IMG/VR virus record: IMGVR_UViG_2529293060_000009
Length of the DNA: 46,993 bases
From: a virus
Lineage: Duplodnaviria > Heunggongvirae > Uroviricota > Caudoviricetes
Direction: 5' to 3' (one strand)
The notes beneath the pieces were generated by a model, which saw only the letters and a program-made list of their open reading frames with translations, was not told the DNA's origin and ran no database searches. The translations under genes and the position numbers were made by a program. Each line of letters opens with the position of its first letter. Within the stretch, counting starts at the first letter, position 1. Positions 3,309 through 46,993 of this stretch are shown here, piece by piece.

Positions 3309-3884
3309 CTACGGCAGTGCTGGCCATTCAATATCCTGTGCAGTTGACGTATCAACACGGTTCAGCAATACCCGATACTTTTTCCATGCTTCCAGCAACG
3401 AGATTTCTTCCTCCGTTGCAATTTCCAGATCTGCAGCATCCTGAAGCGGCGCAATATGCTCACTGGCTACCTGCATCAGGTTGTTTTTTGTTTCTTCCGC
3501 CTCCCGGATCCGGAACAGTTTTTCTGCTTCCGTATCCTTCACCCAGGCTGTGCCGTTCCACTTCTGAAACTCCCCTTCCGGCGATAACCAGGTAACATTT
3601 TCCGGTAACGGACCGAGTTCAGAAATAAATAACGCGTCGCCGGAAGCCACGTCATAAACCGTTTTACCCCGATGATCTTCAACGAGATGCCACGATGACT
3701 CATCACTGTTGAAAACAGCCACGAAGCCAGCCGGAATATCTGGCGGTGCAATATCGGTACTGTTTGCTGGCAGACCTGTATGAGGCGGAATATATGCATC
3801 ACCTTCACCAATAAATTCATTAGTTCCGGCCAGCAGATTATAAATTTTTATGGTCCGTGGTTGTTCACTCATTCTGAATGCCAT
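3309..3884 (-). CDS. tfa: Tail fiber assembly protein Tfa
   Basis: 191-aa ORF ([31 protein letters not shown]...) nearly identical to my recollection of lambda Tfa. Start overlaps stf stop. Confidence 0.88.
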
Positions 3885-34422: not shown

Positions 34423-34521
34423 TAAATCAGGAAACAAGCTGTTATATGATAATAACTACGTTGCGATTCCAACATTTAAAATGTTAGACTAATGAAAATC
34501 AGACAGCAACTTTTCCTTTAA

Positions 34522-34899
34522 TTATTTCGAACAATCAGCATCCATCTCCAATCGGAGATCCAACACCATCAGCATGCCCTCCACTACGCCCTCAGCTTTC
34601 TGGAGCATCCTGCCAACCCAACAATCAGATCGCCCATGCTTACGTGCAAGCGCCATAAAAGTCATGCCGCCGACATAATAGTCCACCAATAAATCATGTA
34701 AATCGCTGTTGTTTTTTTTCAGGCGAGCCATACATTCACAAATGATCATCGCGTCATCGTCACAGCATTGCGGACGAGATCTTACTTTTGAAGGAATTAA
34801 TCCCTTAAAACCGGCGGCAATGGACGACCAGGTCACATCTTCATGATTATTAGCCGCCCATGCCCCCCAACGCTCAAGAACCATCTGAATATCACGCAT
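34522..34899 (-). CDS. Late-gene antiterminator Q (QuuD/phage-82 Q type)
   Basis: [33 protein letters not shown]...[19 protein letters not shown]... closely matches my recollection of DLP12 QuuD. Confidence 0.8.
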
Positions 34900-34916
34900 C
34901 AACTTACTCCACAAAA

Positions 34917-35966
34917 TTAGGCCAGCACACCAATTGCCAGCGCGCGATCGATAAATCGAAAAATCAGCTCCAGTTGGGAGCCATACTTCTCTTCAAATGC
35001 CACGGTATCCGTATGCAACTCGTCGTGATGCTTTCTGCACAAAGGCAAAACAAAGAGATCATGTGCTTTGGTTCCCATTCCGCCCTGCCCGTGACCAATC
35101 AGATGATGCGGATCGTCGGCTGGCATACCGCAGCAAGCACACGGCTGTATCTTAACCCAGCGTGTGTATTTCTCCTTAACCCACCGGTGACGTTTAGGCA
35201 GCTTCATGAAAGATTCCGGAGACTCTGGATCAACGGTGATGCTTACCACCGTCTTTTCCTGTGATGGGTTTTGTTGCTGGTGGGCGTGAGGCAACGGTGC
35301 AAGATTTTTTGTGCGCTGTTTCAATATGCTGGTGGCGGTCTGCTCTCCCGGTACGATGTCGCTTTCGCGGTACACCGAGCAGATTTTTTCCGCTGGTAAT
35401 CCCAGCGAGCGACGTAATACCGCTTCCGGTAGCGCGTCCGCCAGCTGATTGCGGACCGCCCACCAGGATAATTCAGCCAGAGATAATTCACGCTCCTGCG
35501 TACCGCTTATTGCGTGACCGATGACGTCAATCATCCATGCTGACAGGTTTTGATGAGCAAGTTGCTCGAGTGATTCGGATGTCTGGTCACGCAGCTGGTT
35601 GTCGCAGTGCCAGCACAACACCATTGCGCCGGTACCATATCGGTGAATAACGGTTTCGCTGTGATGATAATCGCCGTGTGGCCACTGGCAGGATTTAATA
35701 TGGCGCAACAGCCAGTCAGACAATGCACCAGCACCACCAGCAGCACGAATTACCCGTGCGTTACTGAAAAACGGCAGCAATGTTTTGTCTTCCACCAGCG
35801 GCTGGCGAACGGCAGGAACGACCCCGGACGGCAGATTACGCATGCTTTTCGGTTCCGGCTCCACCAGTACCCGGGTATTGTGGAATACCGGCATGGATTC
35901 ACGGCCCGGCTTAACGACCACCAGCCCGAGTTCCGGTACCAGAACAGGTCGAAGTAATACCCGCAC
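34917..35966 (-). CDS. DUF968-type protein with C-terminal HNH-like Cys/His cluster (nin-region protein)
   Basis: C-terminal [21 protein letters not shown]...CRKHHDELH. Located immediately upstream of Q as in DLP12-like nin regions. True start may be internal. Confidence 0.55.
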
Positions 35967-35967
35967 G

Positions 35968-36357
35968 TTACCTCCAGAGGCGTTGCTGGAATGTACGGGA
36001 CGGACGCGGTGGGCGTTCGGAGTAAGGCAATCTGACTGAGATTATCCAGTGACGGTAGTCGAGGCTAAGGGCTTTTTTAACCTCGTATCCGCGCCTGCGG
36101 TAACACTGAATTATCCATTCAGCCTGCTCTTCAGTGCATGGTGGATGCTGGAACCAGTCCGATTTGAATGCATGAAAACGCCGTCCGCACCTGCTGGCAA
36201 AGACGGCAGAATCATCAGAATTGTGTAATTTGGTATCGTGCGCCATCGGTTGTCTCTGCTGGCGCAGCAGGTGCCAGTTGTTCAGGCTGGCGTATAAAGT
36301 ATAAATAAACTGGTTCCAGTGTAAAGCCCCTACATTAATGGAATAAAAGTCAAACAA
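35968..36357 (-). CDS. Hypothetical nin-region protein
   Basis: ORF track only. Likely starts at internal Met (MAHDTKLHNSDDSAVF). Confidence 0.35.
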   Translation of the reverse strand: MFDFYSINVGALHWNQFIYTLYASLNNWHLLRQQRQPMAHDTKLHNSDDSAVFASRCGRRFHAFKSDWFQHPPCTEEQAEWIIQCYRRRGYEVKKALSLDYRHWIISVRLPYSERPPRPSRTFQQRLWR

Positions 36358-36609
36358 CAGATTGTTGGGATAAACACAACGCTTATTATTAAAAGCGATT
36401 AGATAAATTAAATTTTAATGTTATGCAATTTTACCAGATCACCATAACATCTCGTTTGAAACCACCAAAACAACAACCATATCAATTTTGATTATGTTAA
36501 AGTGAGTAAATATGGAAAACAACAAATCTGCACATTACGCTCCTTTTTTATCTGTGATACTTTTTGTTTTATGCTGTGTGTGGGCATTATTTTTATAAAA
36601 ATATTTACA

Positions 36610-36636
36610 GATAAAATAAACCCGCCGAAGCGGGTT
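36610..36636 (-). terminator. Rho-independent terminator of the hok transcript
   Basis: Plus strand aacccgccgaagcgggtt preceded by an A/T-rich run; on the minus strand the hairpin is followed by tttattttat. A second 9-bp stem (ggcgaggga/tccctcgcc, 36672..36693) lies between the hok stop and this terminator. Confidence 0.6.
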
Positions 36637-36704
36637 AAGTGCGGGTGCATTGAGGATGCCTGACACATCAGAGGTGGCGAGGGATTTCTCCCTCGCCTGG
36701 TCTC

Positions 36705-36860
36705 TTACTCCTCAGGTTCGTAAGCTGTGAAGACAGCGACCTCCGTCTGGCCGGTTCGGATTCGTACCTCGCAGAGGTCTTTCCTCGTTACCAGTGCCGT
36801 CACTATGACGGTTAAACAGATGACGATCAGGGCGATTAACATCGCCTTTTGCTGCTTCAT
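36705..36860 (-). CDS. hokD: Hok-family type I toxin (HokD/RelF)
   Basis: MKQQKAMLIALIVICLTVIVTALVTRKDLCEVRIRTGQTEVAVFTAYEPEE, identical by recollection to K-12 HokD. Confidence 0.85.
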   Translation of the reverse strand: MKQQKAMLIALIVICLTVIVTALVTRKDLCEVRIRTGQTEVAVFTAYEPEE

Positions 36861-37475
36861 AGCCTGCTTCTCCTTGCCTTTCGGCACGTAAGAGGCTAAC
36901 CTACATGTGTCTAGCATGAAATTGGCCTCAGATTAATGTTAAGCGTCTTGCAGGACGCGTAATGTTAACTGGGGCTTTTCTCTATCTGCCTTTGGTGTTC
37001 ATGCCTGAGGCAGATAGCCTCAAGCACCCGCAGCAATTCTACTTAACTCACGTCACCTCGCCAATATAAAATCAATCAGAAAGGCGATCCGTAAGAACAA
37101 CAGCAAGACAATAAATTGCCATTACAGCCGCAATAGCTAGCGCACATTTGAGAACCAGCACGACAACCTCCTGTATTGGACGTACACCAGTCCTGATAAA
37201 TATGAGGCTGTCTCATCATTGATTCAATATAACTATTGGGTATAGTTTCTGTGATTTTGTTCTGTAGAAATGGAACACAACAACCAGTCTCCACCAGCAC
37301 TTCTTTAAATACGCCAAGTCCGACGCAAGCTAACCTTCTAGTCCGCTTTGAGCGAACTGTGGAAGCTCGCAAATGTTGTTACATCTGATGAAGGCATTAC
37401 TCAAAGGAGGGGATAGTAGTCAACGTGGAGCAGGCCATGTTAGTATTTTTATACAATTCGACTAAGGGAAAAACA

Positions 37476-38345
37476 ATGAGGCTTTACATAATAGGAAATG
37501 GATTTGACATGCGTCATGGCTTACCAACAGGATACAAGCACTTTAAGTCGTATGTAGAAAAAAATGACCAAGATCTATATGACGCGATAGAAGAATACAT
37601 TCCTGCTGGGGACGAGTGGAATGAGTTAGAAAATGCTTTAGGTGAAATTGATTATGAGCTTATCCTTCAAAACAGTGAGATATTTTTGGCTTCATACAAT
37701 ACCGATGATTGGAGCGATGCTTATCATCACGATTACCAATATGAAGTAAATAAAATCACACAAATGCTGTCAGCTCGTTTGAAGGAGCAATTCGCTGATT
37801 GGGTTAAAGGGATTAACATAGCCGATGCTTACAATCCTAAGCAATACATCCCGCCCATACCAAGAGAAAGCATCTATTTTTCATTTAATTATACAAATAC
37901 CTTGCAGCAGATCTATGCCGTTCCAGACGAGCAAATCATACATATTCACGGCAATTGTAGTTACGATGACGATCTCATACTTGGTCATAGTTTTAGGGTG
38001 GAAAAGTCACTAAATCCATATATAGGACCGGATCAAGATACAAGAATAGCAGAGGCATACGACAGAATAAACGAATACTTCGGTAATACATTCAAGCCCA
38101 GCGAAGACATAATTAAAGAAGAAAACGTTTTTTTCTCATCGCTTAAAAATGTGGACGAGGTCATCGTTTTAGGCCACTCGCTCGCCGAAGTTGACGGTGA
38201 ATACTTTACTGAAATAAATAAAAGCATCCAAGAAAATGCTCGATGGATAGTTGCTTTATATAGAGGTGAGAAAAAATCAGGCAGTTTAGAAGATTATGGT
38301 ATCAGAGGCTCAAATATTTCTTACGTACAGTATGAAGATATCTGA
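37476..38345 (+). CDS. AbiH-like abortive-infection family protein (N-terminal IIGNGFD motif)
   Basis: 290-aa low-GC ORF beginning MRLYIIGNGFDMRHGLPTGYKHFKSY, the motif I associate with the Pfam AbiH family. Good RBS (aagggaaaaacaATG). First gene of a two-gene cassette on the opposite strand from its neighbours. Confidence 0.5.
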   Translation: MRLYIIGNGFDMRHGLPTGYKHFKSYVEKNDQDLYDAIEEYIPAGDEWNELENALGEIDYELILQNSEIFLASYNTDDWSDAYHHDYQYEVNKITQMLSARLKEQFADWVKGINIADAYNPKQYIPPIPRESIYFSFNYTNTLQQIYAVPDEQIIHIHGNCSYDDDLILGHSFRVEKSLNPYIGPDQDTRIAEAYDRINEYFGNTFKPSEDIIKEENVFFSSLKNVDEVIVLGHSLAEVDGEYFTEINKSIQENARWIVALYRGEKKSGSLEDYGIRGSNISYVQYEDI

Positions 38346-38428
38346 ATGAGACTTCATATTATAACTATAATTATGTAAAAAAGGCTGGTATTTTATACCT
38401 TGAGGAAAATAGATAAGAGGAATGAGGT

Positions 38429-39826
38429 TTGGTTATGATGAATTATACTGATGAGTCAACTTTTCTTGAAAAGTACAAACCGTTTAGGAAGTTTTGGACA
38501 ATTTTATCACCTCATTATGTATCTTTAATGCATGCACTTGCCAAAATGATAAGGGGAGGGAATCCAATTCAAGAACTACCTTCCAATGATGAGGATTTTC
38601 TTGCAGAGTATGAAACCTGTCTCAAAAATTGGAAAGACTCACAAAAAATCATATCTTTTGAGATTATTATTCGGCTGAGAGATATAAAAAGATTGGAAAC
38701 TGAAAAAAAAGAGCACCATCGAAACAAGGATAAAGAAAATAAAGAAAAGTGTATTGATGAAATAAGTTTAAAAAAATTTGAAATTCTTATTCTTCGCCGT
38801 TGTATTGACTCAATAATTTGGAGCATTCTTGATGAAGAACACTCTAGTTTGCGGCGTTTACCTATTAATGCAAGCAATGACAATCTATCAGAAGATAACA
38901 TAATTGATTCTATGGTCGCAGCCGATCTTATCAACCAGGACAAACACTCCGTAGCGATTGTCTCTGACATGAGCACATTTGTTCATGTGGGAGATTTAGT
39001 CACCTTTAATCTACTGGATGGCTTCCAGCTCGTGGAAGTTAAAACAGGTGAAAAGAATAATGAGCTTTATGAAGCTGCTGAATTTTCTGTTATCTCAGAA
39101 TGTCCGCACTTTGAAGAAAACTTCATTAACAATATGCCTGATAATGATGTTAAGCAATTTAATCGCATAAAAAGGCAAATCATTCGTGGCATGAATGTTC
39201 TGGAGGCGATTAATACTGGCGAGGGCTTTGACAACTTTCATCAGTCTAAAGTTAAAATCAATGAGATAGATCATCCGTCTGAATTTTATACCCACCGCTT
39301 AGTTAAAATGTGGGAGATTATTCGCGGAGGAAAAAATTGGGCAATTGATACTATTGATGAATGTTTGTTCTTAGGTATGTACCGTGATTCTGAAATGGGC
39401 TTTGTTGCCTTCAATGGATGGATGGATAGTCTCGGTATAAAAAGCCCTGTTGTGAATATAAATGATTCATTCTTTGACCCTTTGTCTCGACCATTTATGA
39501 GTTTGCATCTGCCAACTGAAATGCTCTCCGATCTCATGTCGGGACAAATAATCATCGTCATGTGTTTTGACAATGAACTTTTTTTTCACCGTGCTAACAA
39601 AACGTACCCGGGTTTATATCTCCTTAGCGATGCAGCAAGAACAAAGCAGCCATTAGAAAATATTCTTCGTGTTGGTTCACAAGGGATAGCTTCTTACGTA
39701 GATGGGAATACCAGCTTTTTAGGTAATGGTATTGAATCCCGTATCCTTTTCGATCAGCAACGACCCGACAACATTATTGAGTGGAGCTATGCTAGAAGCG
39801 ATCTCAAAAAGCAACATGAAGCATAA
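38429..39826 (+). CDS. Hypothetical 465-aa protein with a PD-(D/E)xK-like nuclease motif, partner of the AbiH-like gene
   Basis: Low-GC ORF 83 bp downstream of the AbiH-like gene, with RBS. Central segment ..SVAIVSDMSTFVHVGDLVTFNLLDGFQLVEVKTG.. fits the D...(D/E)xK pattern of restriction-type nucleases. Confidence 0.4.
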   Translation: MVMMNYTDESTFLEKYKPFRKFWTILSPHYVSLMHALAKMIRGGNPIQELPSNDEDFLAEYETCLKNWKDSQKIISFEIIIRLRDIKRLETEKKEHHRNKDKENKEKCIDEISLKKFEILILRRCIDSIIWSILDEEHSSLRRLPINASNDNLSEDNIIDSMVAADLINQDKHSVAIVSDMSTFVHVGDLVTFNLLDGFQLVEVKTGEKNNELYEAAEFSVISECPHFEENFINNMPDNDVKQFNRIKRQIIRGMNVLEAINTGEGFDNFHQSKVKINEIDHPSEFYTHRLVKMWEIIRGGKNWAIDTIDECLFLGMYRDSEMGFVAFNGWMDSLGIKSPVVNINDSFFDPLSRPFMSLHLPTEMLSDLMSGQIIIVMCFDNELFFHRANKTYPGLYLLSDAARTKQPLENILRVGSQGIASYVDGNTSFLGNGIESRILFDQQRPDNIIEWSYARSDLKKQHEA

Positions 39827-40088
39827 GCCGTTGGATGGGATTTCCCATGAATTGCCATGGATAATCTAGACACTTCGAGCCGTTGATAATGTTGATTTTC
39901 GTATTCTGTCGGTGGAGTATCCCGAAAGGTATAGAGCAAAACCTGGAGAAAACACACAGCATCCCATTTTAATCTTTAACTCTGACCTTCCATAATGTCC
40001 GCTGTTGGCACAAAGCGGACAACCACGCTAGCTCTACCCTGTGCCACAAAATGTCAATTTGCATCTGAACTAATGCACTTTAATCTCG

Positions 40089-40511
40089 TCACTTCAATAA
40101 ATACCGAACATCCCCCTGATAAAACGACAATATGCGCTGCATAACTTCGCTTTTACGACACTCAGTACAAATCATATTATGACGCCTGTCGTAACGACGT
40201 ATTCCTCCATCAGGTAATGACCAGATAAGGTCCGGATCAACCGCAGATGGTTTCTTCAGCTTTGCCCTTGAGAGCTTTTTACGGGCATTTTGCCAGTCCT
40301 TACGCGCCTGTTCAGACGGGAATAACCCGTAACCAGAGTTGTATACATCGCCACTGGCAACCAGCTCTCTGGCCAGAACGTTCATCATATATTTTGTTGC
40401 CCCAGTTTTAGTTTCCAGTTGTCTTAACGTCTCGCGCCCACTCTGGCGTACGAGTTCAACAACCTGCCCTTTAATTTTTTCCCGCTCTTCTTGTGTAAAA
40501 ACTTTTGCCAC
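40089..40511 (-). CDS. Hypothetical early-region protein (possible DNA-binding protein with C-terminal Cys pair)
   Basis: 140-aa basic ORF directly downstream of the replication initiator gene. Confidence 0.4.
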   Translation of the reverse strand: MAKVFTQEEREKIKGQVVELVRQSGRETLRQLETKTGATKYMMNVLARELVASGDVYNSGYGLFPSEQARKDWQNARKKLSRAKLKKPSAVDPDLIWSLPDGGIRRYDRRHNMICTECRKSEVMQRILSFYQGDVRYLLK

Positions 40512-40551
40512 AAGCCCTCCTGAAAATTACCTCATGACCAGAAATTAACAC

Positions 40552-41628
40552 TTACCCCCTGAAGCCCGGCGGAATTTCGTTATCCGGTTCAGAAATATGA
40601 TTCACACAACGCTGGTTGTTCGTGCCGCTTACCGGGAGCAACCAGGGGTTCTCAAAATTCCGGTCCGGTCCAAAAAACGTCGTCGCTCGCTGAACAAATT
40701 CCGTTCCCGTTTTCCCGGTAGCCGCCAAGTATCTTGCGTAACGCCTCACGCCATCCAGCATGGCCTCTGGTGGCACCCCCTCGCGTAATCTGGCCTTCCA
40801 GGCACTGAAAGCGGATTTCTTCGGGTTTGCTCCGGCACGCAACGGGTACTCCCGCCAGACCTGTTCGAACACATCCGGATAATCCACTCGTCCCACAGAC
40901 TGCCCGGTGTTTTCCGGGACTACCCGATCGGCTTCCCGCTGAATGGCGGAATCGGCTTCGGGCTGCTGCAGTTGGTGTGATTGCTCCGGCCTTGCGGTCA
41001 TCACCTGCTGCACAGCGCCCGAATCGGCTTTCAGCGCATACGCTGAATCGGCTTCCGGTGTCGTGCCTGCTGGCTGACCAAGATTGACGGTCTGAACATC
41101 CCCTGCCTGGTTCGTGGCGTTTTTTACGCCATGGACCATAGTGTTTTGATCTTCTTGATCTGTATCTTTATCTGTATCTTTATCTGTCGTGACTCGTCGT
41201 GACATGTGCGTGACATTTCGTGACGCGCCGTGACAATCGCCATTTTGTTCCCGCTTTCTTTCCCTCTCTCGCTGCGCCCTCTTGCGCTCTGCAGGAGATT
41301 TTGCGGTTTGCGAAATATTGCCGTTGTCCTCTTTAAGCACCTGGCGTTTTTCCCATCCAGTGATTAAATCACCATCAAGTACCCGCCCCTGCATCGTCTG
41401 CAAAATTGAATCAATCACCTCTTCTGTCACGTCGAGCGCACTTGCCAAATCTTCTGTCGTGACATCAATGTGACCTCGCGTGACATTTCGTGACGCGCTC
41501 ACCAAGAGGTGGATATACACTGCCATCACTGTTGCAATTGGCTGCCCTGACACCCTGGCAATTGTTCGCCACTTAGGGTCATTTGGCATGTCATGCCATA
41601 ATCTGAGCCAGGCGTTAGCCATACTCAC
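40552..41628 (-). CDS. Replication initiation protein (lambda O analog, YdaU-like) containing internal iteron arrays
   Basis: 358-aa ORF in the O position, downstream of the cro-like and ydaT-like genes. Two clusters of 10-11 bp phased cgtgac repeats lie inside the coding sequence. Confidence 0.6.
   Translation of the reverse strand: MSMANAWLRLWHDMPNDPKWRTIARVSGQPIATVMAVYIHLLVSASRNVTRGHIDVTTEDLASALDVTEEVIDSILQTMQGRVLDGDLITGWEKRQVLKEDNGNISQTAKSPAERKRAQRERERKREQNGDCHGASRNVTHMSRRVTTDKDTDKDTDQEDQNTMVHGVKNATNQAGDVQTVNLGQPAGTTPEADSAYALKADSGAVQQVMTARPEQSHQLQQPEADSAIQREADRVVPENTGQSVGRVDYPDVFEQVWREYPLRAGANPKKSAFSAWKARLREGVPPEAMLDGVRRYARYLAATGKTGTEFVQRATTFFGPDRNFENPWLLPVSGTNNQRCVNHISEPDNEIPPGFRG
41188..41234. 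repeat. Iteron cluster 1: five cgtgac repeats phased at 10-11 bp, preceded by a tandem atctgtatcttt duplication
   Basis: Seen directly: cgtgac at 41188, 41198, 41209, 41219 and 41229. Confidence 0.65.
41451..41493. repeat. Iteron cluster 2: four (c)gtgac repeats phased at 10-11 bp, containing a 21-bp exact copy of part of cluster 1
   Basis: gcgtgacatttcgtgacgcgc occurs at both 41207..41227 and 41473..41493. Confidence 0.65.
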
Positions 41629-41693
41629 CTCTTTTGATACCGAATCTTTTTACTCACAAATTGCCGGAAGTGATCCGGTATGAATATTGCGAG

Positions 41694-42119
41694 TCAATGC
41701 ACAGCCACAATATTTCCTGCAGGGCCACCACGATTCATCTGGTTGAAACCAGCGATCGCCACTGCGACAAAATCATCAGCGTCTCTCACCAGTCGTTCCC
41801 GCGTCTCCACTAGTTCCCGAAAATAGGCTGAGCTATGACTGCGCATTCGGGCCACCAGCAGAGGTGGCATTGCTTTTTCGATAGCTGGTAACAACGCCTG
41901 AATTTTTTTAACCGCATCAGGGGTGTCTTTCTCCACCCAGCGGAAAATTTTCTGAGTATTGCGAGCCAGGGCTTCCGGATGGCTGTCGTCATACAGTTCC
42001 GGGAACGTCATTCCCAGCTCGAAATACGCTTTGGTAATTTTCGCAGCCGGTACTTTTTCGCCGTCCGGATGCGCCCAGGCATTCATCGCCATGCGGATGT
42101 GTTCATGCTTGATTTTCAT
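41694..42119 (-). CDS. YdaT-like protein (Rac-type early gene)
   Basis: 141-aa ORF beginning MKIKHEHI, like my recollection of K-12 Rac YdaT (140 aa). Position cro-like, ydaT-like, replication gene. Confidence 0.55.
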   Translation of the reverse strand: MKIKHEHIRMAMNAWAHPDGEKVPAAKITKAYFELGMTFPELYDDSHPEALARNTQKIFRWVEKDTPDAVKKIQALLPAIEKAMPPLLVARMRSHSSAYFRELVETRERLVRDADDFVAVAIAGFNQMNRGGPAGNIVAVH

Positions 42120-42370
42120 GAATCAACTCCCATCAGCTTTTTCGTAGTAGTTTTATTCCTGCCAATAGTTAAAATTGCATCGGCAGAAAATAATCCGTTT
42201 GATGCAAGAGCGATTTTTTCAGCGTAATTTGTTTCGCCGGTATATTCTGTGCGAGGCAATTTTCCGTTATCCATCCATTTATAGATTGCTCTTTGGCTGA
42301 CACCACAAACGTCGGCCACAACAGCAACGCGAACAGTTTTGATTACATCTTCAAGTGTTTTCTGGTTCAT
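42116..42370 (-). CDS. Cro/YdaS/DicC-position small HTH regulator
   Basis: 84-aa protein from internal Met with a strong RBS (gagggtgat before ATG) and HTH segment (..VCGVSQRAIYKWMDNGKLP..). Divergent from the repressor gene. Confidence 0.65.
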   Translation of the reverse strand: MNQKTLEDVIKTVRVAVVADVCGVSQRAIYKWMDNGKLPRTEYTGETNYAEKIALASNGLFSADAILTIGRNKTTTKKLMGVDS

Positions 42371-42449
42371 ATCACCCTCACAATGTGAACTTTGAGTACA
42401 TGCCATAACAGAACTGACAGTACATTCAAGAGCGAATATCATTGAACTT

Positions 42450-42869
42450 ATGGTTCATGAAGATAAAGCGCGTAAAGAGTTCGCCAGTAGGCTTGCGCTA
42501 GCCTGTGAAAACGCTGGTTATGAACAACATGGAAGGCAGGCAGAAATTGCCCGTCGAATGAAATTAACACCAAAAGCGGTTAGCAAATGGTTTAATGGCG
42601 AAACAATTCCTCGCCGGGAGAAATTAAGGGAATTAGCAACACTAATAGGAACAACACCAACCTATCTTTTGGGAGAGGATACAGAAGAAAGTGGACAGGT
42701 ACGTTTCTATCAGGAGTTAAATCCAAGACAAAAAATCATCATTGACCTTCTGGACGAGCTCCCTGACAGTGAGACAGATGAACTTTTAAAAACTCTTGAA
42801 GAGAAAAAACAGAAGTACAATGCAATTTACGAAGAGTTAGCACGAAAGAAAAAACAAAAAGCCTCTTAA
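42450..42869 (+). CDS. Prophage repressor, XRE-family HTH (DicA/RacR-like)
   Basis: 139-aa ORF with N-terminal HTH (..QAEIARRMKLTPKAVSKWFNGETIP..) and Lys-rich C-terminus. Divergently transcribed from the cro-like gene and followed by the ydfA-dicF-dicB operon. Confidence 0.7.
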   Translation: MVHEDKARKEFASRLALACENAGYEQHGRQAEIARRMKLTPKAVSKWFNGETIPRREKLRELATLIGTTPTYLLGEDTEESGQVRFYQELNPRQKIIIDLLDELPDSETDELLKTLEEKKQKYNAIYEELARKKKQKAS

Positions 42870-43166
42870 ACCAGCATAAATCCGGTAGCGCCTTCCTCCG
42901 GGTTTGTGCTTCACATTATCCCATCTCATTTTTTTACACACAAAATGTACTAAAAGTACTTTACAACAATGAACGCAAAGTACATTATATGCCTGCCACC
43001 CACCCCGCCCCACAGAATGCAGGGCAATACTTCGAGTTACCAGGCAGTGGTCAGGGGTTAAGTAGCCAGCCCGAGGCGTAAGAACATGACGGCAGGGTTC
43101 AACTTTAATAACTATGCAGCAGGTTTTTGTTCCGCTACCCCGGCGTTAAGGGGAAATGAGGTCAGC

Positions 43167-43319
43167 ATGGATACTATCGATCTTGGCAACAGCGAATCTC
43201 CGGTATGTGGCGTGTTCCCCAACCAGGACGGTACGTTCACCGCGATGACATATACCAAAAGCAAAACGTTTAAAACCGAATCTGGCGCGCGTTGCTGGTT
43301 AGCCAGAAACACTGACTGA
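43167..43319 (+). CDS. ydfA: YdfA-like small protein
   Basis: 50-aa protein from internal Met with strong RBS (ggggaaatgagg). Position after the repressor matches ydfA in the K-12 dicB operon. Confidence 0.5.
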   Translation: MDTIDLGNSESPVCGVFPNQDGTFTAMTYTKSKTFKTESGARCWLARNTD

Positions 43320-43330
43320 TGAGGCTGACG

Positions 43331-43500
43331 ATGGAATTTAAAGATTTACCGTCTGATGTACAGAAAACAGCAGCTCATACATTGCATTCTGTGCTGCGAG
43401 AAATCGGGAAAGATATTGCAAGCGAGCCAGCAAAAGATCTGGCCCGGAAAATCAAGACCGCTTTCGTTGAGCTTTATAATGTTGGCACTGACTCTGAAAC
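43331..43500 (+). pseudogene. 5-prime part of a ydfB/ydfC-position gene interrupted by IS629 copy 2
   Basis: ORF MEFKDLPSDVQKTAAHTLHSVLREIGKDIASEPAKDLARKIKTAFVELYNVGTDSET runs straight into the IS left end. With the IS and one copy of the aac duplication removed, the frame continues to the stop at 45007..45009. Confidence 0.6.
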
Positions 43501-43542
43501 TGAACCGCCCCGGTTTTCCGGGAGAGTGTTTTATCTGTGAAC

Positions 43543-44442
43543 TCAGGCTGCCAGACCACCATTTCCGATGGAAGCGTAATATGCCTTTTCCGCTTCTGCC
43601 GGCGGGATATGACCCAGTCGTTCCAGCAACCGTCGGTTATTGTACCAGTCCACCCACGTCAGTGTGGCCAGTTCCACTTCGGCGCGGTTTTTCCAGCTCT
43701 TACGATGTATCACCTCCGCTTTATAAAGTCCGTTGATGCTCTCCGCCATCGCGTTGTCATATGAGTCGCCTGTGCTGCCGGTTGACGCCAGCAACTCTGC
43801 ATCCTTAAGCCGCTGAGTGTATGCCAGCGACACATATTGTGACCCCTTATCTGAGTGATGGATGGTGCCCGACGGGCGACGGGCCCACAGCGCCTGCTCC
43901 AGTGCATCCAGCACGAACGTCGTTTTCATCGACGATGAGACCCGCCAGCCCACAATGACGCCGGCGAACACATCGATGATGAACGCCGCGTAAGCGAAGC
44001 CCTGCCAGGTGCTCACATACGTGAAGTCAGCCACCCACAGCTGGTCGGGGCGTTCTGCCACGAACTGGCGGTTCACCCGGTCACCCGCAGCGGCTTCTTT
44101 CCGGCTGACTGTGGTGCGGACCTTTTTACCCCGGCGCACACCGGCAAGCCCCATCACCTTCATCAGCCGTTCTACTGTGCACCTGGCCACGGTCACCCCC
44201 TCACGCAACAACTGGCGCCAGACCTTGCGCACACCGTACACGCTGTGGTTTTCATCGTACACGCGCTGTATCTCCGGCTTCAGCAGGTCATCACGCTGTG
44301 CCCGCTGACTGCGTTTATCCGGATGCCGTTGATGCGCACGATGCCGGTAATACGTTGACGGGGCGACAGCCAGCTCGTGGCATACCGGTCCGACCCCGTG
44401 CGCACCACGCAGGGTATCCACCAGAGGCGCTATTTTTTCCAC
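43543..44442 (-). CDS. IS629-like transposase OrfB (copy 2)
   Basis: Same as copy 1 OrfB except [10 protein letters not shown] versus [10 protein letters not shown]. Confidence 0.85.
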
Positions 44443-44756
44443 AGGCGGTCGAACTCCGCCTTCGCAAAATACGCGGAAGCCTGGCGCAGGATATCGTTGC
44501 TGCGGCGCAGTTCGCGGTTTTCACGCTCCAGTTCCTTCAGACGCTGACGTTCAGTGGTGCTCAGTCCGCCGTCACCTGCACCGGCATCGCGCTCATACTG
44601 ACGCAGCCAGGTACGCAGGGTCTCAGGCGTACAGCCGATTTTAGGGGCGATGGAGCTGATGGCCGCCCACTGCGAGTCATAGTCATTCTGGCTTTCGATA
44701 ACCATACGAACGGCCCGCTGACGGACCTCAGGGGAAAAGCGCGTATTTTTAGTCAT
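44430..44756 (-). CDS. IS629-like transposase OrfA (copy 2)
   Basis: Identical to copy 1 OrfA. Confidence 0.85.
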
Positions 44757-44813
44757 CCTGTTTACCTCTCTCTCAAGGAGTTTAGTCTCCAGGATTCCCG
44801 GGGCGATTCAAAC

Positions 44814-45009
44814 TGTCGAGACCAAGACCGTAAGTTCACCAATATTCTCACTTGAGCCAGGCGTATTATCAGGTGAAATATGCACCGAGATTTCCAGCGA
44901 ACTGCTTCCGGTAATACGAGAAGCAATTTGCCGTCGCGGTTTGGATGGAAGTTACGATCATGACGTCCTGCAAGTTCTCAGGACAATGGTGACTTCACTG
45001 GGGATTTGA
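44814..45009 (+). pseudogene. 3-prime part of the IS-interrupted ydfB/ydfC-position gene
   Basis: Frame continuity with 43331..43500 after removal of the IS and one target duplication copy; ends ..VLRTMVTSLGI. Confidence 0.5.
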
Positions 45010-45178
45010 TCCCTGCGTCCTCTAACCTTTTGATATAGCGGTCCTCCAAGAAGCGGTAAATTTTGTCGAAATCATCTTTCCCCTCTGGTTTATTCAGAGG
45101 ATTACAGGACCCGTAAGTAGCGGCATACATTTCAACCGTTTTATCAAAAATATAAGAGACAAATTCTTCTTTAGTCAT
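44978..45178 (-). CDS. Hypothetical 66-aa protein, convergent with and overlapping the interrupted gene
   Basis: Internal Met (MTKEEFVSYIFDKTVEMYAATYGSCNPL...) with good RBS (aaggaaatctat before ATG). Confidence 0.4.
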   Translation of the reverse strand: MTKEEFVSYIFDKTVEMYAATYGSCNPLNKPEGKDDFDKIYRFLEDRYIKRLEDAGIKSPVKSPLS

Positions 45179-45453
45179 ATAGATTTCCTTCTTGGTTATT
45201 CTGGATAAGAAGGATACCACCTCGCCTGACGTGGTTAAAAGCAGGCACACAACACGAAAGCGCACGGCGAAGTTCGTCTCACTGTACGGTGTCGTTAAAT
45301 TTAATTCGACCGTGCGCTTCCGGTTGTGGCAACCCGCGAAATGGCGCGGCGGTAAGTATGGCGGGGTTATTCCTTCCCCGTTGAGGACACCGAGTTGTCA
45401 GGTTGACCATACGCTTAAGTGACAACCCCGCTGCAACGCCCTCTGTTATCAAT

Positions 45454-45506
45454 TTTCTGGTGACGTTTGGCGGTATCAGTTTTACTCCGTGACTGCTCTG
45501 CCGCCG
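45454..45506 (+). ncRNA. dicF: DicF small regulatory RNA
   Basis: tttctggtgacgtttggcggtatcagttttactccgtgactgctctgccgcc followed by a T-run. Matches my recollection of the 53-nt DicF RNA and sits immediately upstream of dicB. Confidence 0.85.
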
Positions 45507-45680
45507 TTTTTAAAGTGAATTTTGTGATGCGGTGAATGCGGCTAAGCGCACGCGGAACAGTTAAAACCAAAAACAGTGTTATGGGTGGATTCTCTGTATC
45601 CGGCGTTAATTGTTAACTGGTTAACGTCACCTGGAGGCACCAGGCACTGCATCACAAAATTCATTGTTGAGGACGCGATA

Positions 45681-45869
45681 ATGAAAACGTTATTACCAAA
45701 CGTTAATACGTCTGAAGGTTGTTTTGAAATTGGTGTCACTATCAGTAACCCTGTATTTACTGAAGATGCCATTAACAAGAGAAAACAAGAACGGGAGCTA
45801 TTAAATAAAATATGCATTGTTTCAATGCTGGCTCGTTTACGTCTGATGCCAAAAGGATGTACACAATGA
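45681..45869 (+). CDS. dicB: Cell division inhibitor DicB
   Basis: 62-aa MKTLLPNVNTSEGCFEIGVTISNPVFTEDAINKRKQERELLNKICIVSMLARLRLMPKGCTQ with RBS gagga, near-identical to my recollection of K-12 DicB. Confidence 0.9.
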   Translation: MKTLLPNVNTSEGCFEIGVTISNPVFTEDAINKRKQERELLNKICIVSMLARLRLMPKGCTQ

Positions 45870-46057
45870 ATTCAGCATTTGCGCTTGTTCTGACAGTTTT
45901 TCTTGTTTCCGGAGAGCCAGTTGATATTGCAGACAGTGTTCACAGGACAATGCAGGAGTGTATGACTGCAGCAACCGAACAGAAAATTCCCGGTAACTGT
46001 TACCCGGTCGATAAAGTTATTCACCAGGATAATATCGAAATCCCGGCAGGTCTTTAA
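45866..46057 (+). CDS. ydfD: YdfD small protein
   Basis: 63-aa ORF (MNSAFALVLTVFLVSGEPVD...) overlapping the dicB stop, as in the K-12 dicB-ydfD arrangement. Confidence 0.8.
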   Translation: MNSAFALVLTVFLVSGEPVDIADSVHRTMQECMTAATEQKIPGNCYPVDKVIHQDNIEIPAGL

Positions 46058-46150: not shown

Positions 46151-46993
46151 ATGAGTAAAGTCTTTATTTGCGCCGCTATTCCTGACGAACTGGCAACAAG
46201 GGAAGAAGGCGCTGTGGCTGTAGCCACAGCCATTGAAGCTGGCGACGAACGCCGTGCTCGAGCAAAATTTCACTGGCAGTTCCTGGAACATTATCCGGCT
46301 GCTCAGGACTGCGCTTATAAATTTATTGTCTGCGAGGATAAACCTGGCATACCCCGCCCTGCCCTCGATTCATGGGATGCTGAATATATGCAGGAAAACC
46401 GCTGGGATGAGGAGTCAGCTTCTTTTGTCCCGGTTGAGACTGAATCCGATCCGATGAACGTCACTTTTGACAAGCTGGCCCCTGAAGTACAGAACGCTGT
46501 CATGGTTAAGTTCGACACATGTGAAAACATCACCGTTGATATGGTTATTAGCGCACAGGAATTGTTGCAGGAAGACATGGCAACATTCGACGGACATATC
46601 GTTGAAGCGTTGATGAAAATGCCAGAAGTTAACGCCATGTATCCGGAGCTTAAGTTGCACGCCATTGGGTGGGTTAAGCATAAATGTATTCCTGGTGCTA
46701 AATGGCCCGAAATTCAGGCAGAGATGCGCATCTGGAAAAAACGTCGCGAAGGTGAACGCAAGGAAACCGGAAAATACACGTCTGTTGTTGATCTCGCCCG
46801 CGCCAGAGCCAATCAACAGTACACTGAAAATTCAACAGGAAAAATCAGCCCGGTCATTGCTGCCATTCATCGCGAATACAAGCAGACATGGAAAACACTG
46901 GATGACGAACTGGCCTACGCTCTCTGGCCTGGTGATGTGGATGCCGGAAACATTGACGGCAGCATCCATCGCTGGGCAAAAAAGAAGTTATCG
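46151..46993 (+). CDS. ydfE: YdfE-like protein, 3-prime end beyond the window
   Basis: Open frame from ATG 46151 (RBS gagg) to the window end with no stop. Not in the ORF track because it is unterminated. Position after ydfD. Confidence 0.6.
   Translation, partial: MSKVFICAAIPDELATREEGAVAVATAIEAGDERRARAKFHWQFLEHYPAAQDCAYKFIVCEDKPGIPRPALDSWDAEYMQENRWDEESASFVPVETESDPMNVTFDKLAPEVQNAVMVKFDTCENITVDMVISAQELLQEDMATFDGHIVEALMKMPEVNAMYPELKLHAIGWVKHKCIPGAKWPEIQAEMRIWKKRREGERKETGKYTSVVDLARARANQQYTENSTGKISPVIAAIHREYKQTWKTLDDELAYALWPGDVDAGNIDGSIHRWAKKKLS

Follow-up and report, generated by a model that had tools for sequence, protein, structure and literature searches.

An IS629-like insertion splits ybl81 in the dicF-dicB operon of a Qin-like Escherichia coli prophage and is predicted to be polar on the distal genes

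Introduction

DicF and DicB are prophage products that act on the bacterial host, with effects on FtsZ and cell division, on metabolism and on phage receptor function. In the Qin prophage of Escherichia coli K-12, DicF and dicB come from a polycistronic transcript that begins at the DicA-repressed promoter dicBp, upstream of ydfA (PMC10448788). Two DicF species are described there, a 190-nt RNase III product and a 53-nt RNase E product, and part of the transcript passes the DicF terminator (PMC10448788). A promoter just upstream of dicB was suggested by Cam et al. (1988), as that proposal is cited in a 2023 study in which no other promoter was evident by primer extension and northern blots (PMC10448788).

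Lambdoid prophages of enterohaemorrhagic E. coli (EHEC) are frequently hit by the insertion sequence (IS) IS629 (PMC3271280). The three recognised sub-types of this element are only 4-5% apart, and the sub-type of O55:H7 strain CB9615 is the closest to Shigella IS629 (Rump et al., PMC3271280). In the literature that we searched, nothing relevant was found on polarity of IS629 or on IS insertions in dicBF operons. In general, an IS in an operon is expected to cause Rho-dependent polarity on the distal genes. Here, we analysed a viral DNA record of 46,993 nt (the window), in which an IS of this kind lies between ydfA and dicF, and compared it with K-12 Qin, with the Qin prophage of BL21(DE3) and with the phage record mEp460_ev081.

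Results

Prophage and immunity region

The prophage of the window is lambdoid, full-length and of the Qin/mEp460-like type. Outside the immunity region and the early-left operon it carries a Q antiterminator, hok/sok, AbiH, and replication, lysis and structural genes. An Stx phage or a Shigella origin was considered and rejected: a 319-aa open reading frame (ORF) of the window encodes a ybgA-like protein and not Stx, and the source organism is E. coli P0304777.1. The immunity region contains the following features:

41694-42119, minus strand: YdaT-family gene
42116-42370, minus strand: Cro/DicC-like helix-turn-helix gene, 84 aa, with a weak Pfam HTH_17 match
42450-42869, plus strand: repressor gene, 139 aa, Pfam HTH_3 (E = 1.8e-9)
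42944-42988, plus strand: predicted early-left promoter region, the equivalent of dicBp (promoter scan)

The repressor has the same architecture as K-12 DicA, with 29% identity over 112 aa, and sequence comparison thus identifies it as a distant DicA homologue. Since the identity is only 29%, the immunity specificity differs from that of K-12 Qin. The Cro/DicC-like gene is annotated as a helix-turn-helix regulator in a related locus of 99.7% identity. Upstream of ydfA, the scan revealed a promoter-like site, TTTACA-17-CATTAT, at 42960-42988, with two operator-like palindromes of 17 bp overlapping it at 42945-42961 and 42969-42985 (ATGTACTAAAAGTACTT and ATGAACGCAAAGTACAT; pattern ATGWAC-N5-GTWCAT). 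Three more palindromes of the same type lie at 42386-42459, between the repressor and the cro-like genes, an arrangement that matches the OL/OR layout described for K-12 dicA/dicC/dicBp. Because operator-type palindromes overlap the promoter-like site of ydfA and are shared with the intergenic region of the repressor and cro-like genes, control of the ydfA-ybl81-dicF-dicB operon by this repressor is a well-founded inference. For K-12 itself, the sequence-only reading of the window had placed the transcription of dicF and dicB under a DicA-controlled promoter upstream of ydfA, in agreement with the published account (PMC10448788).

Organization of the operon

Downstream of the predicted promoter, the operon and its surroundings are arranged as follows:

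43167-43319, plus strand: ydfA, 50 aa, DUF1391 (Pfam PF07151, E = 1e-25), the first operon gene
43331-43500, plus strand: 5' part of ybl81, codons 1-57
43501-44810, minus strand: IS629-like insertion sequence of the IS3 family, 1310 bp
44814-45009, plus strand: 3' part of ybl81, codons 58-121 and stop, start codon lost
44978-45178, minus strand: gene of 66 aa antisense to the operon (WP_000159335.1; phrog_34441, E = 1.5e-50)
45245-45330, plus strand: long hairpin in the DicF precursor (RNA fold)
45455-45506, plus strand: DicF small RNA (Rfam RF00039, 72.5 bits, full length); 45454-45512 with its terminator
45681-45869, plus strand: dicB, 62 aa, intact (Pfam PF05358 on an identical locus)
45866-46057, plus strand: ydfD lysis protein gene, 63 aa, intact (Pfam PF07358 on an identical locus)
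46151-46993, plus strand: 5' part of a ydfE/RecE-like exonuclease gene, truncated by the window end (Pfam PF27430, YdfE_N, and PF27432, YdfE_C, on an identical locus)

The names of ydfD and of the 'exonuclease' follow the annotation of a locus of 99.7% identity. The order of the immunity region, ydfA, DicF precursor, dicB, ydfD and exonuclease gene is that of K-12 Qin. Nucleotide identity to K-12 is 89% in the ydfA block (43129-43310), and the K-12-homologous block restarts at 45237, 217 nt upstream of dicF, with 96.7% identity from there onward. DicF itself is identical to the K-12 RNA at 52 of 53 nt and ends in a terminator, a hairpin of -16.6 kcal/mol with TTTTT after it. By calculation, the 190-nt RNase III product begins at approximately 45317, in the 3' arm of the precursor hairpin. 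With regard to the features by which dicBF-type operons are recognized, the window has a DicF gene with its terminator, ydfA upstream and both dicB and ydfD downstream, and it lacks ydfB and ydfC between ydfA and dicF.

The space of ydfB and ydfC is occupied by ybl81 and the antisense 66-aa gene, unlike in K-12 Qin. Homology searches showed no nucleotide or amino acid similarity between ybl81 and either K-12 gene, so the K-12-like identity implied for the split gene in the sequence-only reading could not be upheld; sequence comparison points instead to an unrelated module that replaces ydfB/ydfC. On the other hand, the same order, ydfA - ybl81 - antisense ORF - dicF - dicB, is found at 99.6-100% nucleotide identity in BL21(DE3) Qin and mEp460_ev081 (99.6% in the latter phage record). 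Both carry an uninterrupted ybl81, unlike the window, and the immunity region of BL21 Qin differs from that of the window. The window also differs from K-12 Qin in that the operon is interrupted by an IS and that the prophage is full-length and not a remnant.

The ybl81 gene starts 11 nt past the ydfA stop codon on the same strand, with a GAGG Shine-Dalgarno motif ahead of it, and sequence scans detected neither a promoter nor a terminator between the two genes. The 66-aa antisense gene is annotated in two related loci that have the empty site, occurs on over 1000 contigs and shares 32 nt at its 3' end with that of ybl81. Its presence makes transcription of this module more complex than that of K-12, a point that we counted against a polar effect of the IS.

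Structure of the insertion

The limits of the IS and its parts, located by exact string search and by domain and profile matches, are given below:

43498-43500: target-site duplication AAC, left copy
43501: right inverted repeat (IRR)
43543-44442, minus strand: orfB (Pfam rve, HTH_21 and rve_3; rve/DDE integrase core)
44359-44475, minus strand: ALIL frameshift-stimulating pseudoknot (Rfam RF01497, 95.3 bits, full length)
44430-44756, minus strand: orfA, 108 aa (Pfam HTH_Tnp_1)
44810: left inverted repeat (IRL)
44811-44813: target-site duplication AAC, right copy

On the plus strand, the element begins with TGAAC and finishes with GATTCA (start TGAACCGCCCCGG, end CCGGGGCGATTCA). It has the ORFs that characterize the IS3 family, an orfA with a helix-turn-helix domain, an overlapping orfB with the DDE/rve core and signals for -1 frameshifting, the latter including a run of seven A at the 3' end of orfA (GGAAAAAATAG) as candidate slippery site. 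OrfB matches the NCBIfam model of IS3 family transposases (NF033516) with 312.8 bits, the cutoff being 160. The ends are also those of the family, with imperfect inverted repeats, TG...CA termini and 3-bp target duplications, within the 3-4 bp usual for the family, AAC here and GTT at the other copy in the window (32459-33768, GTT/GTT), which differs by 1 nt. The element is therefore an intact member of the IS3 family with a complete IS3 transposase apparatus. Its transposase genes and frameshift signals, all minus-strand, run opposite to the operon, so that the IRR side faces ydfA and the IRL side (the transposase 5' side) faces dicF.

It is virtually certain that this element inserted at codon 57/58 of ybl81 with duplication of AAC. 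When the IS and one AAC were deleted in silico, an open frame of 121 codons was restored, and alignment with the uninterrupted homologue, the check that the sequence-only reading had suggested, showed 366/366 nt identity to the gene of WP_001320327.1 in E. coli DETEC-E601 and BL21(DE3), where AAC occurs once at the empty site. The claim that an IS splits the ORF between ydfA and dicF-dicB and has its own target duplication, AAC, is thus borne out by the limits of the element, by the duplication and by the reconstruction. In the window, the ybl81 frame continues into the IS and reaches a stop at 43540, 40 nt inside the element. The product of 69 aa (73 aa if an upstream start is used) corresponds to EMX03175.1. 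Hence, ybl81 is knocked out and can yield no more than this N-terminal fusion peptide.

WP_001320327.1 is annotated as 'hypothetical protein' and is called Ybl81 in some sources. No relatives were found in Pfam, NCBIfam or PADLOC, and sequence matches in the PDB were not significant. Ybl81 corresponds to phrog_33007, all of its PHROGs matches are in families of unknown function, and several other such families share its first ~55 residues. The IS lies just downstream of the sequence for this shared module. An AlphaFold model from the single sequence, whose mean pLDDT of 46 was inadequate for searching related folds, hints at a disordered linker between two helical hairpins, and the IS would be located within this linker.

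Relationship to IS629

The element resembles IS629/IS1203 of Shigella and EHEC in its length of 1310 bp, its orfA/orfB organization with -1 frameshift signals and ALIL pseudoknot, its TG...CA termini and its 3-bp target duplication, and differs from it in being just 83% identical in nucleotide sequence. Identity to an IS629/IS1203 copy of O157 EDL933, labelled IS1203 family by PGAP, was 83.3% (88% for OrfA and 84% for OrfB at the amino acid level), and identity to the O55:H7 CB9615 copy was 83.1%. ISfinder treats elements as isoforms at roughly at least 90% nucleotide or at least 95% amino acid identity. Measured against the EDL933 and CB9615 copies, the element falls outside IS629 sensu stricto (including IS1203). 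The label 'IS629' that it had been given does not hold when 83% identity to these two copies is set against the 4-5% that separates the IS629 sub-types, and the comparison identifies the element as IS629-like, related to but distinct from IS629. Copies of at least 99% identity are rare; they were detected, at 99.9% identity, in 7 complete E. coli genome records, and a few Salmonella plasmids have copies at 99.2%. Near-identical copies are named merely 'IS3 family transposase' by PGAP and in source names, and neither these names nor the literature search yielded a more specific one.

Distribution of the insertion

The same insertion was found in 0 of 5,426 complete RefSeq E. coli genomes, while the reconstructed region gave a continuous match by megablast in 385 complete E. 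coli genomes. On 33 + 10 contigs from independent draft assemblies we found the exact IS-fusion ORF; intact Ybl81 is encoded on more than 1000. Identity of 100% was found between the window and the last 7.66 kb of contig AQEN01000022.1 (GCA_000355095.2, E. coli P0304777.1); the OrfB product of this strain is EMX03176.1. In other carriers, 1-3 SNPs were counted per 4.3 kb, and one of them is without the immunity genes.

That the window matches a draft contig and ends where the contig ends could raise the suspicion that the IS was misplaced in assembly. We consider this extremely improbable: the 3-bp duplication is perfect, excision gives the exact reference gene, and the same junction is present in 24 contigs from independent NCBI and ENA assemblies. 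The insertion is real and inherited within a lineage. It is also fairly recent, because the two IS copies of the window differ by only 1 nt. IS3-family insertion in a prophage operon is a well-known type of event, and no description of this allele was found in the literature searched. Altogether, this is an ordinary, lineage-restricted IS insertion in a prophage.

Sequence between the insertion and dicF

The insertion leaves dicF, its processing hairpin, dicB and ydfD undamaged but increases their distance from the only predicted promoter by 1.3 kb. No plausible translated frame is present in the ~1.9 kb from the stop codon within the IS to dicF. Read in the sense of the operon, the IS is rich in C and poor in G: the C/G ratio is 1.3 or higher across much of 43540-44260 and peaks at 2.4. 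A consensus scan of the plus strand between 43501 and 45454 detected no sigma-70 site matching at least 9 of 12 positions, and such scans may miss promoters within the IS that are weak or not of the sigma-70 type. Intrinsic termination as the mechanism of a polar effect was also considered and set aside in favour of Rho, as the plus strand of the IS offers only weak candidates (e.g., 43509-43522).

Discussion

We consider it most likely, with a probability of about 0.7, that the IS has entered a repressor-controlled early-left operon, that ybl81 has been lost and that the distal genes are subject to polarity. According to this model, an IS3-family element has transposed into codon 57/58 of ybl81, the second operon gene, and duplicated 3 bp, AAC. 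Ribosomes that translate ybl81 would halt 40 nt inside the IS, and the transcript would then be untranslated for ~1.9 kb, through the C-rich, G-poor antisense of the transposase genes, where Rho would stop most transcripts ahead of dicF. Upon derepression of the prophage switch, DicF, DicB and YdfD would be strongly reduced, and the exonuclease and the excision genes further downstream probably as well. In a related locus xis and int are situated downstream of the operon and, by analogy, these genes would also be affected in the prophage of the window.

The part of this model that concerns dicF, dicB, ydfD and the exonuclease gene should be given somewhat less weight than the whole. Rho-dependent polarity on these genes appears to be the likeliest outcome, at odds moderately better than even, because the translation stop is followed by C-rich untranslated RNA and by no convincing promoter before dicF. 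Any polarity would probably be of the Rho type, since the intrinsic-terminator candidates in the IS are weak. In classical cases of polar IS1 or IS2 insertions in gal or lac, as here, an IS in a promoter-proximal gene leaves the downstream genes intact and the RNA ahead of them untranslated. Unlike those cases, the present operon is a phage early operon that may be antiterminated, and its polarity is a prediction.

Early-left operons of lambdoid phages, such as those of lambda and HK022, are commonly antiterminated (N/nut or put). The interrupted operon corresponds to such a PL operon of a lambdoid phage, as the xis and int genes downstream of it in the related locus illustrate, the IS contains no convincing plus-strand intrinsic terminator, and in K-12 the transcript already passes the DicF terminator in part (PMC10448788). 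By antitermination or owing to inefficient Rho action, transcription might then read through the IS, so that ybl81 would be destroyed with little polarity and DicF and dicB would remain nearly normal and repressor-controlled. We regard this outcome as unlikely, although it deserves more attention than any other alternative to polarity: domain and profile searches identified neither an N-like gene nor a nut or put element, ydfA and ybl81 are without known function, and ~1.9 kb of untranslated RNA that is C-rich within the IS is a classic substrate of Rho. Considerably less probable is a promoter downstream of the insertion, within the IS, at its junction or before dicB, that would drive dicF and/or dicB and uncouple them from the repressor. 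The proposal of Cam et al. (1988) for K-12, as cited in PMC10448788, is in favour of such a promoter, as are weak 8/12 matches at 44816-44846 and further downstream. Nevertheless, the 2023 study of K-12 reported no internal promoter (PMC10448788), and no plus-strand site of the window reaches 9/12 from 43501 to 45454.

The orientation of the IS is also relevant to this point. Ends of IS3-family elements can form hybrid promoters, and the outward -35 sequence of these elements is located in the IRR. In the window the IRR, at 43501, faces ydfA and not dicF. An outward promoter directed toward dicF was rejected on account of this orientation and the lack of consensus sites, and the suggestion made from the sequence alone, that the insertion could uncouple DicF and dicB from repressor control, is not supported, as the IRR points away from dicF and no site of at least 9/12 was found.

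Only as a long shot would we propose that the insertion is a selected 'safety catch' that grounds a complete prophage, perhaps reversibly by excision of the IS, or that DicF has been rewired to IS-derived, repressor-independent transcription. If the safety catch were true, the toxic module of DicF, DicB and YdfD, the exonuclease and the excision genes would be cut off from the switch, and derepression would no longer make the host filament and lyse.

Few prophage products, DicF and DicB among them, have defined effects on the host, and an allele that separates these two from their only known promoter would be a ready-made test for internal promoters. The same allele would test whether early transcription of Qin-like prophages resists termination. 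Otherwise, the insertion is mainly useful as a strain marker and for correcting annotation, with an IS629-like element in place of IS629 and ybl81 in place of ydfB/ydfC.

Allelic variation at the insertion site in ybl81

Many draft contigs of Shigella sonnei and E. coli were found to stop within a short zone of ybl81 (for example, at ...DSETV), without carrying any sequence of the insertion element:

about 43480-43500 and 44814-44830, codons 51-62 of ybl81

This zone is also where an N-terminal module of ~55 aa, common to several PHROG families, comes to an end, and the insertion point of the IS629-like element lies directly at the same module boundary. The zone probably marks a boundary, of the mosaic or repeat type, between prophages that reside together. 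A further allele was observed in a 512-bp ENA contig (P0011), whose ybl81 product ends in ...GTDSEFTNILT followed by a stop; it corresponds to the loss of 23 nt where the IS target site lies, and this may be the footprint of an IS-adjacent deletion. In addition, one carrier assembly with the same IS junction (L007, GCA_023244625.1) lacks ~1.3 kb relative to window positions 41709-42993, including the ydaT-like, cro-like and repressor genes as well as the predicted ydfA promoter.

Antisense gene and RNA elements

A conserved gene lies antisense to the ydfA-to-dicF operon, within the operon span:

44978-45178, -, 66-aa protein (WP_000159335.1, phrog_34441)

It shares 32 nt with the 3' end of ybl81. 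After the insertion, leftward read-through out of this gene would enter the IS via its left inverted repeat (IRL), and would run in the sense direction for the transposase genes.

A 2016 report described both DicF and DicB as absent from BLAST results on phage genome databases (PMC5069750). We identified ydfA-ybl81-dicF at 99.6% identity in the sequenced record of phage mEp460_ev081 (29552-30589); that of phage Tritos is a further record with either these genes or an annotated DicF. Three further Rfam matches were present in the prophage:

36855-37029, -, sok antitoxin RNA
27888-28305, -, cspA-type thermoregulator 5' UTR
3343-3541, -, IS009

The two IS copies

The other copy of the element is intergenic:

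32459-33768, IS copy 1, GTT duplication
31377-32336, -, ybgA-like gene (2-thiouracil desulfurase/DUF1722)
33842-34366, +, lipocalin gene

As its flanking genes are on the minus and plus strands, respectively, copy 1 lies inside their divergent promoter region, and it splits no ORF of at least 40 codons. Both copies (window 32459-44810) are direct repeats 9.7 kb apart, enclosing Q, hok/sok, AbiH, the replication genes, the immunity region and ydfA. Because each copy retains its own target duplications, neither deletion of this block nor its movement as a composite has occurred here. Recombination between the copies would result in loss of the Q-to-ydfA block, and the block with its flanking copies could be mobile as a composite element.
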